DNA from: Arcobacter sp.
GTDB lineage: Bacteria > Campylobacterota > Campylobacteria > Campylobacterales > Arcobacteraceae
Length of the DNA stretch: 15,736 bases
Direction: 5' to 3'
Assembly: GCA_965662175.1 (NCBI GenBank)
Contig: CBFIGT010000052.1
Coordinates: 1-15,736, forward strand
The position numbers were made by a program, and so were the translations under genes. Positions 4,954 to 14,686 of the stretch are shown piece after piece (position 1 is the first letter of the stretch; each line of letters opens with the position of its first letter). The notes beneath the pieces are model-generated. The model was given only the letters and a program-made list of their open reading frames with translations. It ran no database searches and was not told where the DNA came from.

Positions 4954-6855
4954 ATGTATAAAGAGTTATTTCTTATAGTTGAAGATGAAAGTGATTTAAG
5001 CAAATATGAAAATATTATCAAATATACAAGTGAAAAGTATGAGCTTAATCTAAAAATAAGATTATTTGATAAAAGTTATGAAAATATAGAAAATAGTCTA
5101 TATATTTTATTTTTAAGTGATGAAAAAATAAAGATTTTTTTAAAAAATCATATATTTAAAAATATAAATATAGCAATATTGCCAAATGAAATGTGCAAAA
5201 ATACAGTTAATAGTTATGGTATTTCAGAAAATATTTATGATGCTATAGATGATGCTTTAAATATAGATTTACTAAGTAAAGTTGATATATTAAACTGTAA
5301 TGAGGAGATTGTATTAAACCGAATAGAAATAGGTGATATGCATGGAATAGATTACTCAAATAATGATGGTTTTTTTATAAAAACAAAAAACTTTTTTGAT
5401 AACTTAAAAAACTTAAAGTATATTCCTTTTACTTTTACTACCTCCAAAGAACAGACTTTTAAAACTGTTGCTTCGGGAGTTACTATTTTAGAACACTCAA
5501 TCAAAAATAGTAATTTTGCATTAAAAGATCATTTTTCAGGGCATGATGGAAAGCTAAATGCTTTTGTTTTATCTCCTGTTTCCCTAATCTCCTATATTTG
5601 GTATTTGATTTCAATCTTCTTTTATGAAAAAATATCTCTTATTTCTTTGCCAAAAAGTTTGGGTTTTATAAAGACTACAAAATTAACAATTAATTTAGAT
5701 GAAGAGATTAATTATGTAATTGATAGTAAAAATTTATATAAAACAAATGAGATAAGACTTGAGGTTTTACAAGATTGTTTAAATATTCACTTAGGTAGAG
5801 ATTTAGCCCAGAGTATAAGAAATGAGCCTATTAGCTTGGAGGAAAAAGATACCATAAAAGTAAATATGCTTCCAAGGGGTGAGATAAATGATATTTTAGT
5901 TCAGGGTAAAATTCCACTATTTAAAAAAGCTAGTGATGATGATATAAAAGATTTATTTATAAACCTAAAAGATGGTGCTAAGCTTTCATATGTATTTTTA
6001 ACTCTTATGATATTAAGTACACTATTAGCAACAACTGGATTATTTGCATCTTCAGCACCTGTAATTATAGGTGCGATGATTTTAGCACCACTTATGACAC
6101 CAATTATATCTTTGTCTATGGGTGTTATTAGAGCTAATGAGATACTTATTAAACATAGTATAAAGACACTATTTATTGGTATTTTTGTAGCTTTATTAGT
6201 ATCTTCTTTATTTACTTTATCTATTCCTTTACAGCAAATTACAGCTGAAATGGAGAGTAGACTAAATCCAAATATATTAGATTTGTTAGTAGCTGTTTTT
6301 TCAGGTATAGCTGGGGCTTATGCAACTTCTAAAGAGGAGGTTGCAAAATCTTTGGCAGGAGTTGCCATAGCTGTTGCATTAGTTCCACCTTTAAGTGTAA
6401 CAGGAATTGGAGTAGGGCTTGGAAATATTGAGGTTATTTATGGTTCATTTTTATTATTTATTACAAACCTTGTTGGTATAACACTAAGTGCTGCGCTAAC
6501 TTTTTTGATTTTGGGATTTGCACCAATTAAAAGAGCAAAAAAAGGGCTTTTTTTAACACTAATTATTATGAGTATTATTACTATTCCTTTAGTATTTTCA
6601 TTTTTACATATGGTTGAAAAAAATAATTATTTAAGTCAATTAAAAGATTTTAAAACATTGGTGATTAATAATAAAGATTTAGAAATAAATATAGAAAATA
6701 TTATAAAAAATGAAGAAACTCTTTTAATAGATATTCAAGTAACAAGTGATAGTTTGATTTTAAAAGATGATTTTATTATATTAAAAAATAGAATTGAAAA
6801 AGCATTGGGTGAAAGAGTTTTATTAAAAGTCTCTTCAAAAATAGTTGTAAAATAA
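4954..6855 (+). CDS. TIGR00341/DUF389 family membrane protein with an N-terminal diacylglycerol-kinase-like region
   Basis: The C-terminal half has DUF389 hallmarks (SAPVIIGAMILAPLMTPI, RLNPNILDLLVAVFSGIAGAYA, LAGVAIAVALVPPLSVTGIG, LLFITNLVGI). The N-terminal half has DAGK-like elements (IAILP..., VDILNCN, HDGKLNAFVL). Confidence 0.85.
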   Translation: MYKELFLIVEDESDLSKYENIIKYTSEKYELNLKIRLFDKSYENIENSLYILFLSDEKIKIFLKNHIFKNINIAILPNEMCKNTVNSYGISENIYDAIDDALNIDLLSKVDILNCNEEIVLNRIEIGDMHGIDYSNNDGFFIKTKNFFDNLKNLKYIPFTFTTSKEQTFKTVASGVTILEHSIKNSNFALKDHFSGHDGKLNAFVLSPVSLISYIWYLISIFFYEKISLISLPKSLGFIKTTKLTINLDEEINYVIDSKNLYKTNEIRLEVLQDCLNIHLGRDLAQSIRNEPISLEEKDTIKVNMLPRGEINDILVQGKIPLFKKASDDDIKDLFINLKDGAKLSYVFLTLMILSTLLATTGLFASSAPVIIGAMILAPLMTPIISLSMGVIRANEILIKHSIKTLFIGIFVALLVSSLFTLSIPLQQITAEMESRLNPNILDLLVAVFSGIAGAYATSKEEVAKSLAGVAIAVALVPPLSVTGIGVGLGNIEVIYGSFLLFITNLVGITLSAALTFLILGFAPIKRAKKGLFLTLIIMSIITIPLVFSFLHMVEKNNYLSQLKDFKTLVINNKDLEINIENIIKNEETLLIDIQVTSDSLILKDDFIILKNRIEKALGERVLLKVSSKIVVK

Positions 6856-9534: not shown

Positions 9535-10068
9535 ATGAGCGATAGATTACATGAGATTATAGCCCAGTGTGCTGTAATACACGAAACAAATATAAATGAG
9601 AGTATTATTGATGATTTAGAAAAAATTGAAGATAAAATTGAAGATATTGATGATGATGTAAAAGAGCATTATTTAATGCTTTTAATGCAATATTATTTTC
9701 AAGAAAATAATTTAGAGCAGTTAAAAAAACTTCTTCTTCAAGGTTTTAAATTTGATATGAGATTTACTGATGTTGCTGAGGCATTTTGTCATCTAAAAGA
9801 TGATGAGGATAATGTTATAGAGTTTTTTGAAGATAGTATAGTTATGCTTAAAGACTCAATCACAGATAAAGATTTAAAAAAAATATATGAGTATTACAAT
9901 GCAAATCAAGAGTTTAAAAACTTTATTGAAGAGTCATTAAATTTAATCAAAAAAAATAGATATGTTTGTGCCCATGCATATAAAAGCAAAGAAAAATTTG
10001 CAAAATTTTTTATAAATGAAGATTTATTAGAATCCCTTCAACGGGATATGCCCTTTTTATTAAAATAG
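9535..10068 (+). CDS. Acidic hypothetical protein
   Basis: 177-aa ORF with an AGGA SD and TATAAT at 9500-9505. No family recognised. Its 3' end overlaps the convergent gene by 31 nt. Confidence 0.75.
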   Translation: MSDRLHEIIAQCAVIHETNINESIIDDLEKIEDKIEDIDDDVKEHYLMLLMQYYFQENNLEQLKKLLLQGFKFDMRFTDVAEAFCHLKDDEDNVIEFFEDSIVMLKDSITDKDLKKIYEYYNANQEFKNFIEESLNLIKKNRYVCAHAYKSKEKFAKFFINEDLLESLQRDMPFLLK

Positions 10069-10709
10069 AGATTTTTTAAAATCTCTATTTGCATATTATG
10101 CAAATAATTAAACTTAAACTCACACTCTTTTAAATAGTAAAAAAAGTTCTTTTCATCAACTCCTTTATATTTTTTTAGATTTTCTTCTAGATATTTCCAA
10201 AAAATAGAAAGTGGTGTTTTATAAGAGTTTTTAGAATATAACTTATGCCATTTTAAATAATATTCATAATCTTTAGTATTTGTTTGTGAACTATATTTTG
10301 GAAGTTTTGGCATAAGAAGAGTATAGATTTTTTTATTTGAATAAAATCCAATTATATTGGTTGCATCAAAAAGTGAACGTTTTTTCTTATTTTGAATAGT
10401 TGTTGGGAAATAGTAATACTCTTCATAAGAGCTATTATCTTTTATACTATTATTATACTCTTCATCTAAAAATGAGGCTATAAGTTTTCTAAAAAGTGTA
10501 TATCTATTTTGTACAGTTCTATAGTTTAAATCTAATATTTGAGAGGTTTTATTTGCATTTATATTATTTGAAAAATACTCTATACAAAATATGTCTGTTT
10601 GAACTTTATTTGTGGAAAACTTTGTTTTACAAGATGCACATTTTTTATAGTTGTTCTTTAAATCATAAAGTTTTGTATAGTCGCAATATGGGCATTTGTA
10701 TATATTCAT
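10038..10709 (-). CDS. IS1595/IS1016-like transposase-derived protein (Zn ribbon + HTH + degenerate DDE domain)
   Basis: CPYC...CASC zinc ribbon, HTH-like NANKTSQILDLNYRTVQNRYTLFRKLI, and C-terminal FWKYLEENLKKYKGVDEKNFFYYLKECEFKFN matching the IS1016-type FW...LRKFNG....F..YLKECEWRFN signature. No terminal inverted repeats seen. Confidence 0.8.
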   Translation of the reverse strand: MNIYKCPYCDYTKLYDLKNNYKKCASCKTKFSTNKVQTDIFCIEYFSNNINANKTSQILDLNYRTVQNRYTLFRKLIASFLDEEYNNSIKDNSSYEEYYYFPTTIQNKKKRSLFDATNIIGFYSNKKIYTLLMPKLPKYSSQTNTKDYEYYLKWHKLYSKNSYKTPLSIFWKYLEENLKKYKGVDEKNFFYYLKECEFKFNYLHNMQIEILKNLYFNKKGISR

Positions 10710-10714
10710 AAAAA

Positions 10715-10720
10715 ATTATA
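10715..10720 (-). promoter_or_regulatory. Putative -10 box of a leaderless transcript for the transposase-like gene
   Basis: The minus strand reads TATAAT-TTTTT-ATG: only 5 nt between the hexamer and the start codon, and no SD. Confidence 0.55.
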
Positions 10721-10796: not shown

Positions 10797-11135
10797 TTGA
10801 GTACTTGTGCAAAAATTTTATGGACAACTGATAATAAAGAAACAGCCTTAAATATGGTTTGTCTTTATGCCCATAATGCAAAACTAAAGGCTTGGGTTGA
10901 TGATGTTCAGATTTTAGTTTGGGGTGCTTCTCAAAAACTAATTAGTGAAGATAAAGAACTACAAGAAAAAGTAAAAGCTATGATAGCTGATGGTGTAGAG
11001 GTAATAGCATGTCAAAAATGTGCCGAAAATCTAGGTGTAAAAGATGAGTTACAAGCTTGTGATATGAATATATACTACACAGGTGAACTTTTGAGTTCAT
11101 GGATAAAAGAGGGAAGTTCTATAATTAGTGTATAG
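10797..11135 (+). CDS. DsrE-family protein
   Basis: TTG start with AAGGA SD. VQILVWGAS and GVEVIACQKCAENLGV fit the DsrE/DsrF-like fold with a CxxC motif. Confidence 0.82.
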   Translation: MSTCAKILWTTDNKETALNMVCLYAHNAKLKAWVDDVQILVWGASQKLISEDKELQEKVKAMIADGVEVIACQKCAENLGVKDELQACDMNIYYTGELLSSWIKEGSSIISV

Positions 11136-11235
11136 ATTAAATAATAATATTAAAAAAATATTTTAAATGGATTAATTATTGCATATATAATAAAATTTAG
11201 TGTAATTTAAAAAATTAATAAAATAAGGTGAAAAA

Positions 11236-11628
11236 ATGAAAATAGCTATTCCGGTAAAAGATGAGAATTTACAGTTTTTTAGTAATGCTGGACATACTCC
11301 AAAGTTTGCTGTATATGATGTGAGTGGTTCAGGAATGTTTAGGTCATTTAATCTAGCTTCTGTTATAAATAATCCTAGAACAGACATCGACCATGACCAT
11401 GCGGAAGAGGAGCATGAATGTAATCATTCCCATGATGATGAAGAGCATATTGCACAACATAATAAAATGGGTGTGGCTTTAAGTGAGTGTAATTATATAG
11501 TTGTACAAAAAGCTTGTAAAAATACAGCTAAATCTTTTGTTTCTCAAGGTATTAAAATAGTTAAATATAATGGAGAATCTTTAGATGTTAGTGATATTTT
11601 AAAAGAGACATCGGGTAGTTTTTCTTAA
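11236..11628 (+). CDS. NifB/NifX (dinitrogenase FeMo-cofactor-binding domain) family protein with a His-rich insert
   Basis: MKIAIPV...GHTPKFAVYDV...INNP...L.ECNYIV...GIKIV is the NifX-like pattern. Insert HDHAEEEHECNHSHDDEEHIAQH. AAGGTG SD and TATAAT at 11186-11191. Confidence 0.8.
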   Translation: MKIAIPVKDENLQFFSNAGHTPKFAVYDVSGSGMFRSFNLASVINNPRTDIDHDHAEEEHECNHSHDDEEHIAQHNKMGVALSECNYIVVQKACKNTAKSFVSQGIKIVKYNGESLDVSDILKETSGSFS

Positions 11629-11671
11629 GAATAGTTCTAAAAATACATAAGTAATATATTTTTTAGTTTTG

Positions 11672-11717
11672 TTTTAACTAGTTTTCATTAAACTAGTTAA
11701 AATGAATAAATATTCAT
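11672..11717. repeat. Two adjacent perfect inverted repeats upstream of hypB
   Basis: TTTTAACTAGTTT-TCATT-AAACTAGTTAAAA (11672-11702, 13-bp arms) and ATGAATA-AA-TATTCAT (11702-11717, 7-bp arms). Confidence 0.75.
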
Positions 11718-11750: not shown

Positions 11751-12548
11751 ATGTGCAAAGATTGCGGTTGTAGTATTACAGACCATCACCATTCAAATGA
11801 CCATGAACACTCACATGAATATAGTCATACTCATTCTCATAATAGTGCAAGCCACCAAGCAGCACACGAAACACTTCATCATAATCCACAATTAAATGAT
11901 AAAAAAACAATTTCAGTAATCAAAAAAATACTTGATAAAAATGACCATGAAGCAGAACATAATAGAGCTCATTTTGATAATCATAAGGTTTTAGGAATAA
12001 ATCTTATGTCAAGTCCAGGAAGCGGTAAAACAACACTTTTAGAAAAGATTTCAGATATGGTTGATTTCAAATTTGGAGTAGTTGAGGGTGATTTGGAAAC
12101 ATCAAAAGATGCTGATAGATTAAAAGCAAAAAATATCCCAGCTGTACAAATACAAACAGGATCTGCTTGTCATTTGGATGCTTTTATGGTGCATAAGGGT
12201 TTACATGATATGCCTTTAGATGATTTAGATGTGTGTTTTGTAGAAAATGTTGGAAACTTAGTTTGTCCGGCTTCTTATGATGTGGGAACACATTTAAATA
12301 TTGTACTTGTAAGCGTGCCTGAGGGTGAAGATAAGATTATCAAATATCCTGTTATGTTTAGATGTGCTGATTTAATACTTATTACAAAAACAGATTTGCT
12401 TCCATATTTTGATTATGATGTACAAAAAGAGAAAAATGACGCTAGAAAATTAAATCCTGGTGTGGATATTTTGGAGGTTTCTACAAAAGATCAACAAAGT
12501 TTACAAAATGTAATTGATTGGATTAATTTTAAAAGGAGAATGAGATAA
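11751..12548 (+). CDS. hypB: Hydrogenase nickel incorporation GTPase HypB
   Basis: N-terminal CKDCGC, His-rich linker, P-loop SSPGSGKTT, EGD, CHLDA, ENVGNLVCPA and TKTDL. Confidence 0.98.
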   Translation: MCKDCGCSITDHHHSNDHEHSHEYSHTHSHNSASHQAAHETLHHNPQLNDKKTISVIKKILDKNDHEAEHNRAHFDNHKVLGINLMSSPGSGKTTLLEKISDMVDFKFGVVEGDLETSKDADRLKAKNIPAVQIQTGSACHLDAFMVHKGLHDMPLDDLDVCFVENVGNLVCPASYDVGTHLNIVLVSVPEGEDKIIKYPVMFRCADLILITKTDLLPYFDYDVQKEKNDARKLNPGVDILEVSTKDQQSLQNVIDWINFKRRMR

Positions 12549-12829
12549 TGTGCTTATCAATTCCTTCAAAAATAAAAAGTATAGACACTGAAATGAATAC
12601 TTGCGTAGTTGATACTATGGGTGTTGAGAGAAGTGCGAGTTTGGATTTAATAGATAGGGATGTAGTTGTTGGTGATTATGTACTTATTCATATAGGTTTT
12701 GCTATGAATAAAATAGATGAAGAAGATGCCTTAGAGTCTTTGAAAGTCTATAAAGAGATAATAGATAAAATGGATGAGATGGATAAAAAAGCAGCTATTG
12801 AAGAAGCCCAAAATTGTCCAAATAAGTAA
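12548..12829 (+). CDS. hypC: Hydrogenase assembly chaperone HypC
   Basis: MCLSIP N-terminus and VGDYVLIHIGFAM. TAATG coupling with hypB. Confidence 0.97.
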   Translation: MCLSIPSKIKSIDTEMNTCVVDTMGVERSASLDLIDRDVVVGDYVLIHIGFAMNKIDEEDALESLKVYKEIIDKMDEMDKKAAIEEAQNCPNK

Positions 12830-12833
12830 AACT

Positions 12834-13964
12834 ATGAGTGAACTACAACTAAAAGATTTGTATGATGGATTTAGAGATCCAAGTGCAATAAAAGCAATAG
12901 CAAAACTAATAGAAAATGAGTCAAAAAAGCTAGATAAAAAACTAAGAGTAATGGAAGTGTGTGGTGGACATACACATACAATCATGAAATATGGACTAAA
13001 TCAACTAATGCCTGAAAATATTGAGTTTATACATGGACCTGGTTGTCCTGTTTGTGTTATGCCAAAAGAGAGAATTGATCATGCTTATATATTAGCAATG
13101 CTTGATGATGTAATTCTAGTAACCCTAGGTGATATGATAAAAGTTCCAGGAAGTAAAGGAAGCCTACAAGATGCTAGGGCAAAGGGTGCTGATGTAAGAT
13201 TTGTATACTCACCACTTGATACAATAAAAATAGCAAATGAAAATAAAGAGAAAAAAGTAATCTTTTTTGCAATAGGTTTTGAAACAACAACACCTATGAC
13301 AGCAGCACTTATAAATCATGTTGTAAATAGTGATATAAAAAATATACTTTTTCATATAAATCATATAACAGTACCTGAAGCTATGAGAGGATTAGTTGCA
13401 AGTGGTGATTCTAAAATAGATGCCTTTATAGGACCTGCTCATGTATCTGTAATCTCTGGAGCCAAAATATATGAAGAGTTTCCAAGAGATTTTGATATTC
13501 CAGTTGTAGTATCAGGATTTGAACCCCTTGATGTGATGGAATCACTTTTGATGATTACAAAACAAGCAACACAAAAAAGAGCCCAATTAGAAGTTCAATA
13601 TACAAGAAGTGTATCTTATGAGGGCAATACACAAGCACAAAAACTAATAAATAAATTTTTTACAAAAAGAGATAAGTTTAAATGGAGAGGTTTGGGATAT
13701 ATTGATGATTCTGCATTAGAGCTAAAAGATGAGTATAAATCTATAAATGCTGAAATAGTATATAAAGATATACTAAATACAAAAGAGTGCAATGACCATA
13801 AACTATGTATTTGTGGAAGTATTATGAAAGGCTTAGCAAAACCATATGAGTGTACAGTTTTTGGAACAGCTTGTAAACCAAGCTCTCCACTTGGTTCTTG
13901 TATGGTAAGTAGTGAGGGAGCTTGTAGCGCTTATTATAAATATGGAAATCTTTTAAAAAACTAG
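12834..13964 (+). CDS. hypD: Hydrogenase formation protein HypD
   Basis: Motifs MEVCGGHTH, HGPGCPVC, GFETT, PAHVS, C-terminal Fe-S cysteines and MVSSEGAC. Start moved from 12774 (inside hypC) to the in-frame ATG 12834, 4 nt after the hypC stop. Confidence 0.97.
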   Translation: MSELQLKDLYDGFRDPSAIKAIAKLIENESKKLDKKLRVMEVCGGHTHTIMKYGLNQLMPENIEFIHGPGCPVCVMPKERIDHAYILAMLDDVILVTLGDMIKVPGSKGSLQDARAKGADVRFVYSPLDTIKIANENKEKKVIFFAIGFETTTPMTAALINHVVNSDIKNILFHINHITVPEAMRGLVASGDSKIDAFIGPAHVSVISGAKIYEEFPRDFDIPVVVSGFEPLDVMESLLMITKQATQKRAQLEVQYTRSVSYEGNTQAQKLINKFFTKRDKFKWRGLGYIDDSALELKDEYKSINAEIVYKDILNTKECNDHKLCICGSIMKGLAKPYECTVFGTACKPSSPLGSCMVSSEGACSAYYKYGNLLKN

Positions 13965-14022: not shown

Positions 14023-14268
14023 ATGAATTCAAATGATGTAAGAAAAAACTTTGTATTTAAAAAAAAGGTTGCAAAACATCTTGAAGAGATAGCAAAAAGA
14101 GAAAACAAATCTATGACAAAAGTTGTAGAAGAGTTGGTTGAAAAAAAATATAGTGAAGTTAGTAAAGAGGAAAAGTTAAAAGCCTTAAATAGCTTTTTTG
14201 AAGATACAAAAGGAATGTTTGAGTCAGGTATGAGTATTCAATCAGTTAAGGCAAATATGGATGTATAA
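14023..14268 (+). CDS. Putative ribbon-helix-helix antitoxin (VapB-like)
   Basis: VRKNFVF (strand)-KKVAKHLEEIAKRENKSMTKVVEELVEK (two helices) is RHH-like. 81 aa, overlapping the downstream PIN gene by 8 nt. Confidence 0.8.
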   Translation: MNSNDVRKNFVFKKKVAKHLEEIAKRENKSMTKVVEELVEKKYSEVSKEEKLKALNSFFEDTKGMFESGMSIQSVKANMDV

Positions 14269-14686
14269 AAAAGTTTTTTTAGATGCAAATATTTTTATAG
14301 ATAATGAAGATGAAAAAAGAGATTTAGAACAAAATAGTCTAAAGGTTTTGCAATATTTACTTAGTAATGATATTGAACTTTGTACAAGTTGTGATTTGAT
14401 AACTACAATTTATTATATTCTTTCAAAGAAAGATAAACAAAAAGCACTTGATGCGGTTGAGAGAATAAGTAAGTTTTGTAAAATAATAGATTTTGGAAAT
14501 GAAGAAGTTATACAAACTTGTAATTTAATGCGTGAAAATGAAAAATTTAAAGACCTCGAAGATACTATTCAATATATTCTAGCAAAAAAAGAGGGATGTG
14601 ATCTCATTATTTCAAATGACAAAAATTTTGTAAGTGATGATATTGAGCTTTTAACTACTAAAGAGTTTTTAGAAAAGATTGTTTGA
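14261..14686 (+). CDS. PIN-domain toxin (VapC-like)
   Basis: VFLDANIFID, DLEDTIQY and IISNDKNF carry the PIN acidic residues. 141 aa, directly downstream of a small RHH gene. Confidence 0.92.
   Translation: MYKKVFLDANIFIDNEDEKRDLEQNSLKVLQYLLSNDIELCTSCDLITTIYYILSKKDKQKALDAVERISKFCKIIDFGNEEVIQTCNLMRENEKFKDLEDTIQYILAKKEGCDLIISNDKNFVSDDIELLTTKEFLEKIV

Follow-up and report, generated by a model that had tools for sequence, protein, structure and literature searches.

Within the window, by which we mean the whole 15,736-nt stretch of Arcobacter sp. DNA analysed here, a gene that we call X forms part of a [NiFe]-hydrogenase cluster, where it is located between hypF and hypBCD. The best explanation of its sequence, distribution and surroundings is that a transposase and its own end sequence were together turned into a transcription activator and its operator, a reading that we consider likely on the sequence evidence laid out below. 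X itself is almost certainly a domesticated IS1595-family transposase. Coordinates are collected in Table 1.

Table 1 Features of X, its predicted operator and its predicted target operon, in window coordinates.
Feature	Position	Strand	Remarks
X	10038..10709	-	Intact 223-aa ORF; catalytically dead IS1595-derived protein, predicted transcription activator
Truncated RNase H-like core of X, residues 94-178	10176..10430	-	Three strands kept, none further; second and third catalytic acids lost
Three-helix HTH region of X, residues 33-88	10446..10613	-	R74 invariant; from the predicted model and fold matches
Cys4 zinc ribbon of X, residues 6-27	10629..10694	-	C6 and C9 in 64/65 rows; C24 and C27 in 65/65
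TATAAT -10 hexamer of X	10715..10720	-	Lies 5 nt ahead of the ATG; Shine-Dalgarno absent, mRNA predicted to be leaderless
dsrE-like and nifX-like genes	10797..11628	+	Separate X from the hypB promoter in this lineage; not preceded by a box
18-bp box, predicted X operator	11634..11651	+	Minus strand matches the inner part of the IS terminal repeat; top genome-wide matrix match
Candidate -10 TAAACT of the hypB promoter	11689..11694	+	37 nt after the box; outside the strict -10 filter count
Palindrome TGAA-N6-TTCA	11703..11716	.	Downstream of the -10; putative site of a second regulator
hypB-hypC-hypD, predicted target operon	11751..13964	+	hypB by TIGR00073, hypD by PF01924; hypC presumed from sequence and position

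A preliminary description of this DNA had reported an intact reading frame with a zinc ribbon and a helix-turn-helix (HTH), a 31-nt overlap with a convergent gene and a host-type -10 box on the 5' side, all of which were borne out. The overlap is between the 3' end of X and the ORF at 9535-10068. A -10-like hexamer lies 5-6 nt ahead of the X ATG in 33 of 66 loci, and a Shine-Dalgarno sequence is rare (12/66). The AlphaFold model (pLDDT 88.9, pTM 0.85) comprises the ribbon, a three-helix HTH with helices 33-47, 52-58 and 63-88 at high pLDDT, only three core strands, and C-terminal helices. HTH DNA-binding domains rank among the top fold matches (Z 5-7), and the best matches in the VIA structural comparison were modest, with the SETMAR DNA-binding domain at the top (Z 7.0, rmsd 3.1, 56 aligned) and the ISCth4 transposase at Z 6.4 (rmsd 3.5, 138 aligned). 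Foldseek returned nothing for the model at E <= 0.001, a PDB sequence search gave no significant match, and the top ESM Atlas matches were Campylobacterota clusters without a name.

Several neighbouring genes deserve mention in their own right. The convergent ORF encodes an acidic 177-aa protein without a family match, which is also convergent with X elsewhere in the same genus and in genus g10 and is under purifying selection (dN/dS 0.10). A 633-aa protein with a C-terminal DUF389 domain (4954-6855) is inserted between hydE and hypF, and an RHH antitoxin and PIN toxin pair (14023-14686) follows hypD in the usual place of hypE, with similar insertions in relatives. The NifX-like protein (11236-11628) carries a His/Glu-rich insert, may be a nickel-binding chaperone, and adjoins hypB in few loci.

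The ancestry of X is evident from profile comparisons. When a profile built from 65 orthologues was searched against 1.84 billion proteins, the X family itself came first and Zn-ribbon IS1595 transposases next, the best intact transposase being P0151 (E 1.4e-39). HHalign aligned X with 12 intact IS1595 transposases over its full length (223 columns, probability 99.94%, E 2.7e-37). In this alignment the first catalytic Asp falls on E96, in a column of 33 E, 28 D and 4 N among the 65 rows, so that an acid is mostly kept at the first catalytic position; the segment aligned with the second Asp is shortened (K 32, E 14, D 6 of 65 in that column), and the third acid, a Glu, corresponds to S168 in a variable column. 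The erosion of catalytic positions proposed earlier thus holds for the second and third acids. Neither the DE[ST]YF nor the NxIExFW motif occurs in any of the 65 orthologue rows, and family models score X far below their thresholds: NF033547 gives 18.3 bits against a cut-off of 75 (P0151 reaches 152.6), the ribbon matches PF12760 weakly (E 0.051, 14 bits, cut-off 25.4), and a domain search found no match to PF12762.

The IS1016-like identity originally assigned to X does not stand. According to the consulted part of one source, a Zn finger is present in all IS1595 groups but IS1016 (PMC8101967), and since X carries a Cys4 Zn ribbon it is not of the IS1016 group; X derives instead from a Zn-ribbon IS1595 element. 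The earlier conclusion that X is not a mobile element was upheld. An IS1595 element is defined, in the same partial source, by paired terminal inverted repeats and an 8-bp target duplication (PMC8101967). Intact relatives carry clear terminal repeat pairs; at the borders of X no convincing inverted-repeat pair or duplication was found, the full end pattern of these relatives has no match in the whole assembly, and the assembly contains no intact relative. An active insertion sequence is ruled out by the broken triad, the absent ends and the copy number. Many other Zn-ribbon IS1595 proteins with eroded triads lie outside the X clade (P0160, P0161, P0165-P0168, P0170, P0172, P0187, P0196, P0197, P0204, P0211, P0212, P0246, P0260, P0268), which suggests that domestication may have occurred repeatedly in other phyla.

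X is widespread in the phylum. Named relatives belong to Arcobacteraceae (Arcobacter, Halarcobacter, Malaciobacter, Marinarcus), and we therefore treat family f1 as Arcobacteraceae; f2 and f3 are presumably Helicobacter- and Campylobacter-like families. Single-copy in this assembly, X was matched in 109 of 151 Arcobacteraceae genomes, or 107 once two weak C-terminal matches (G029, G047) were set aside, with one or two matches per genome. Among 301 genomes of the phylum, strong matches occur in f1, f4, f5, f7, f8, f11, f12 and f13, and X is intact in these eight families. In 70 chosen genomes that had shown no strong match, a profile search yielded no full orthologue and nine weak or partial matches in eight genomes. 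Families f2 and f3 show weak matches only, up to nine per genome; the eight weak-match loci that were fetched are insertion-sequence copies or fragments with terminal repeats, and a true insertion sequence accounts for nine matches in one genome (G363). The accessible part of the A. butzleri RM4018 genome paper lists 0 insertion-sequence elements (PMC2147049).

Orthologues of X are under purifying selection and seldom broken. Median pairwise dN/dS was 0.065 within this genus (20 of 21 pairs), 0.137 in a second set (68 of 190 pairs, the others falling outside the dS filter) and 0.155 in a third (6 of 10), compared with 0.080 for hypB and 0.17 for a neighbour; with dS near 1.2, these ratios are approximate. 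Two broken copies were seen, one with an in-frame stop (G091) and one in two pieces (G181). X is also dispensable, because 17 hypD-positive genomes are without it. A quick tree of 121 proteins groups all 71 Campylobacterota rows into a single clade (SH-aLRT 100), and X clusters by genus and family, with 19 label changes compared with 45.5 after shuffling and a minimum of 14. Congruence with taxonomy is thus incomplete, the conflicts implying some transfers or paralogy, and X appears to have a single origin and mainly vertical descent.

Two kinds of additional copies were noted. A more eroded paralogue without the Zn ribbon lies inside the X clade, beside TonB-dependent receptors or Feo genes (L053, L055, L057, L058, L269, L272); it has a different upstream direct repeat and is possibly an iron-uptake sister regulator. 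In four genomes (L033, L035, L039, L062) a second full X copy, in a clade of its own with support 98, is dedicated to nikKMLQO besides the hypB-linked copy.

The genomic context of X is fixed. Of 72 loci fetched, 67 remained after four distant paralogues and one locus without a called ORF were dropped, and in 62 of these X and either hypB or a nickel importer are divergent, immediately so in 53; the five exceptions include two beside hydrogenase genes and one before a TonB receptor. The same layout was found in 25 of 28 loci from a second set of named Campylobacterota genomes (28 of 40 loci, the rest omitted as repeats or for short flanks). In the mapped loci X is always divergent from the target operons and never inside them. 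Its partners vary and include DUF4198-CbiM-CbiQ-ABC, HupE/UreJ, NicO-like and PBP-FecCD genes, the first corresponding to the NikKMLQO layout in the available part of PMC2667541, and FecCD-type nickel uptake being described as demonstrated in Helicobacter in that of PMC5140060. X co-occurs with hypD in 105 of 107 genomes.

An 18-bp box, GTNCYAAAAWTAYATAAG, links these partners. It was found de novo in 60 upstream regions at 17.2 bits, versus 8.7-8.8 in three shuffles. When a matrix built from 49 sites in other genomes was run over the 2.6-Mb assembly, the box ahead of hypB in the window ranked first, and second place went to a contig C4 site that precedes an unlinked nikKMLQO operon. Of the 151 family genomes, 94 contain the exact pattern and 8 a reversed control; boxes number one to four per genome. 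The exact pattern is present in 89 of 107 genomes with X versus 5 of 44 without, and among hypD-positive genomes in 89 of 105 versus 3 of 17, although 2x2 tables of these counts overstate significance because the genomes are related. X-negative genomes from genera g5, g8, g9, g12, g15, g19 and g20 have a hypB upstream region without the box in 12 of 13 cases, one of the regions being only 63 nt long and the exception coming from a 370-contig assembly. The box stays with the target when insertions part it from X. In this genus, and nowhere else among the mapped loci, dsrE adjoins X, and the best box scores ahead of the dsrE-like and nifX-like genes are -3.7 and -10.4. Regulation of the dsrE-nifX-like-hypBCD genes, as suggested in the preliminary description, is consequently retained for hypB, whose promoter carries a candidate operator (as does the unlinked nickel-importer operon), and dropped for the dsrE-like and nifX-like genes, which have no box.

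The position of the box relative to the promoter is informative. Contact-dependent activators bind near -50 to -67 and show sharp spacing well upstream of the -10. Here a -10-like hexamer follows the box by 37-38 nt at 54 of 88 sites, with no other gap occurring more than seven times, and this spacing would place the box near -50 to -67 from the transcription starts, an activator position. On the other side, the box lies at most 32 nt from the X ATG in 48 of 51 loci with a site, a proximity to the ATG and leaderless promoter that makes self-repression by X likely in the ancestral divergent layout; in this genome X's own promoter has no good box (score -3.7), that site having decayed. X very probably binds the box, and we judge it probable that X activates the promoters behind it.

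The match between box and target is imperfect. Inspection of 31 matches away from X placed 20 ahead of metal importers or hyp genes and 4 at hydrogenase genes, leaving 7 at neither, several of them inside ORFs. The exact pattern is missing from 18 of the 107 genomes with X, and in 7 of 28 second-set loci no box reaches a score of 16. The pattern also matches 40 of 124 genomes of the X-negative family f3; of 14 pattern loci inspected in f2, f3 and f9, 11 are inside ORFs, 1 is intergenic without the -10 spacing and 2 fall below threshold, and the matches in X-negative f2 and f3 genomes are mostly inherited coding matches. In family f11 the box starts with TTCC, not GTNC. Of 20 hydA loci, 3 have a forward box, 3 a reversed one and 14 none, a pattern that no simple model explains, and the three forward boxes at [NiFe] hydA have spacings other than 37-38 nt. 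At the hupL-hydA junction (L115-L117, L277, L280, L294, and near 21030 of contig C28 in this genome, G000) the box is directed away from hydA and is antisense to hupL. Two other accounts of the box were discarded: a sigma-54 promoter, judged against the consensus, as no -12 element follows and the ATG sits there; and a passive scar of X insertion, as the box follows target promoters and occurs at unlinked operons.

The origin of the box points back to the element from which X descends. P0151, the closest intact transposase by both E-value and tree path, and its relatives have terminal repeats with the consensus GGTGATTAGTACATTTCCGCACCAAAT (24 distinct ends), and it is this group that supplied the ends for comparison. 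When the box matrix is reverse-complemented, its best alignment to the IS end is at offset 0 and in the same orientation (P 0.0014, column shuffles), with agreement at T6, T7, R8, T15, T16, G19, A21, C22 and A24 and differences at the tip (positions 1-5). With 22 sites away from X only, P was 0.001, these sites having been picked with the box pattern. Seventeen ends of other IS1595 elements score within the null, and Campylobacter-type IS1595 ends, considered as a source, bear no resemblance to the box; only those of the closest Zn-ribbon relatives did. The left IS end points into the transposase gene as the box does into X, at a distance of about 14 nt (L172-L175), the median for the box being near 17. 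Scored one by one on the box matrix, IS ends do poorly (median -3.95, best 14.2, against a background of -17.2); 19 of 30 exceed the 95th percentile. The similarity is therefore ancestral and not close, as expected after long divergence. The predicted target sites of X thus appear to derive from the element's own end, and this comparative likeness is the main link between the protein and its site. The statement that no terminal repeats or duplication are visible accordingly needs qualifying: it is correct at the X borders and misses the apparently IS-end-derived sequence before hypB.

Taken together, these results are consistent with the following history. An IS1595 element with a Zn-ribbon transposase would have been captured once, early in Campylobacterota, with its left end beside a hyp or nickel promoter. 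The transposase would then have lost half of its catalytic core and kept the end-recognising ribbon and HTH, and the IS end would have lost its cleavage tip (positions 1-5) and retained the inner recognition bases. X would now bind the box some 50-67 nt upstream of transcription starts and activate its targets, also at unlinked loci; these would include nikKMLQO, HupE/UreJ, NicO-like, FecCD- and SBP5-type ABC and TonB receptor genes and the hypBCD(EA) operon. The same site would overlap the leaderless promoter of X in the ancestral divergent layout, probably causing self-repression, and would have been lost from that position in this genome.

X might alternatively bind the box as a repressor or a signal-blind architectural factor, with regulation coming from a second regulator at the TGAA-N6-TTCA palindrome. 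At hyp-operon promoters this palindrome is found close to the predicted start (hypB 15/27, nicO 8/10, hupE 7/7), X has no invariant metal-ligand set beyond the ancestral Cys4 and acids, and MBH transcription in S. multivorans is reported as constitutive in the part of PMC5357620 available to us. We nonetheless regard such a role as unlikely, given that the sharp 37-38 nt spacing is the pattern of a contact-dependent activator and that pure importer promoters mostly lack the palindrome (nikK 1/19, PBP 0/9), leaving the box as their only visible site. It is likewise improbable that the box is read by another, unlinked regulator while X is a hydrogenase-cluster accessory protein, such as a metal chaperone, travelling with the cluster. 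The co-occurrence with hypD and the Cys4 site would fit an accessory protein, and co-loss of box and X could mean loss of the whole module; yet X is never within the target operons, X-negative genomes keep the hyp genes and lose the box, and the box resembles, in register and orientation, the end of X's closest intact ancestors.

Two further readings would keep X nearer to its transposase past. X could still act on DNA ends, alone or with an intact transposase, in synapsis, inversion or mobilisation of box-flanked nickel cassettes; the one to four boxes per genome stand ahead of often rearranged cassettes, and the gene tree partly conflicts with taxonomy. This is very unlikely, however, with two of the three catalytic acids and part of the fold gone, boxes that lack a conserved terminal tip and are not paired as inverted ends, and no intact relative in the assembly. 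That X is a decaying relic without function, as the two broken copies might suggest, has a negligible probability: the dN/dS medians refute it, and the intact gene in eight families, the single fully supported clade and the confident fold argue against it. The signs of mobility or decay named in advance as counter-evidence, namely multicopy, repeat-bounded homologues in variable contexts, an intact triad, or frequent frameshifts with dN/dS near 1, were in no case what we found.

If X is indeed an activator, its input has to be considered separately. The NikR_C domain was found in none of the 151 family genomes, and in 4 of 26 X-positive genomes of other families versus 5 of 8 X-negative genomes of f2 and f3, so that the distributions of X and NikR are largely complementary, with four genomes having both. 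In family f11, nikR lies directly downstream of and convergent with X (L072, L078, L079, L081). A domain search of X gave no RHH or NikR_C match, and its 65 orthologue rows show no newly gained invariant His or Cys ligands. A strong box with 37-nt spacing stands ahead of an [FeFe]-hydrogenase gene with hydF in one genome (G431, L161:3573-4913), a possible nickel-sparing target. Importer promoters at which this box is the sole visible site would also fit a nickel signal, and the forward and reversed boxes at [NiFe] hydA promoters a hydrogen or redox one. Nickel limitation may tentatively be proposed as the input signal, with a redox or H2 input or a constitutive role sharing the remaining probability. 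More speculatively, X could serve Campylobacterota that lack NikR as their nickel sensor: a DDE transposase and its IS end would have been co-opted together as an activator-operator pair that, under nickel shortage, induces the import of nickel, its insertion and, in one lineage, an [FeFe]-hydrogenase free of nickel. If true, a bacterial regulon would here have been built on the end of an insertion sequence. The TGAA-N6-TTCA palindrome, which may resemble ArsR/SmtB-type operators, may be the site of a second regulator of hydrogen and sulfur respiration; many hydA promoters have it too, and in this genome it also precedes a Tat-signal oxidoreductase (G000:C1:39320).

X is a widespread gene, kept by many environmental Campylobacterota and labelled 'transposase' or 'hypothetical' in databases, and is a candidate for nickel-supply control in free-living, hydrogen-oxidising members of the phylum without NikR. 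In a literature search with little coverage of subscription journals, no paper on the X family was found. The partially available S. multivorans hydrogenase study names NikR as the only regulator there (PMC5357620). The NikR regulon comprises the same kinds of targets as those predicted for X, nickel importers and hydrogenase genes, in the part of PMC2667541 at hand; unlike NikR, X has no RHH or NikR_C domain. With the Zn-ribbon IS1595 DDE transposases of the P0151 group (PF12760, PF12762, NF033547), X shares full-length homology, the ribbon, the HTH and a C-terminal LKExEFxFN, and their inner terminal repeat is matched by its box. It differs from them in its broken triad, scores below the family cut-offs, absence of flanking repeats, single fixed copy and purifying selection, and would work like a transposase-derived transcription factor rather than as a member of the mobile family.

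Transposase-derived regulators with transposon-end sites are known in eukaryotes, and FHY3/FAR1 is a similar plant case of a transposase-derived regulator. As described in the consulted part of PMC8704517, SETMAR/Hsmar1 is, like X, an inactive transposase keeping its DNA-binding part for end-derived sites; X differs in being bacterial, derived from IS1595 and without a fused host domain, and its binding, a prediction, would be to one to four sites at a fixed promoter distance. Because protein, operator and ancestral end are all at hand for X, the exaptation is directly testable by gel shift. The bacterial cases found in the literature are either RNA-guided TnpB derivatives or a still-active Y1 transposase. 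TldR and dCas12f-sigmaE, in the available parts of their reports (10.1101/2023.11.30.569447; PMC13472631), are like X bacterial transcription factors exapted from nuclease-dead transposon-encoded proteins, but they come from TnpB/Cas12f and use guide RNAs, whereas the source of X is the DDE transposase itself, and X would recognise DNA through protein contact. TnpA(REP)/RAYT with REP sequences likewise pairs a domesticated bacterial transposase with dispersed end-like sequences; in contrast to X, as far as the accessible part of PMC3333891 describes it, this is a still catalytically active Y1/HUH enzyme with hundreds of repeats and not a promoter-specific regulator.
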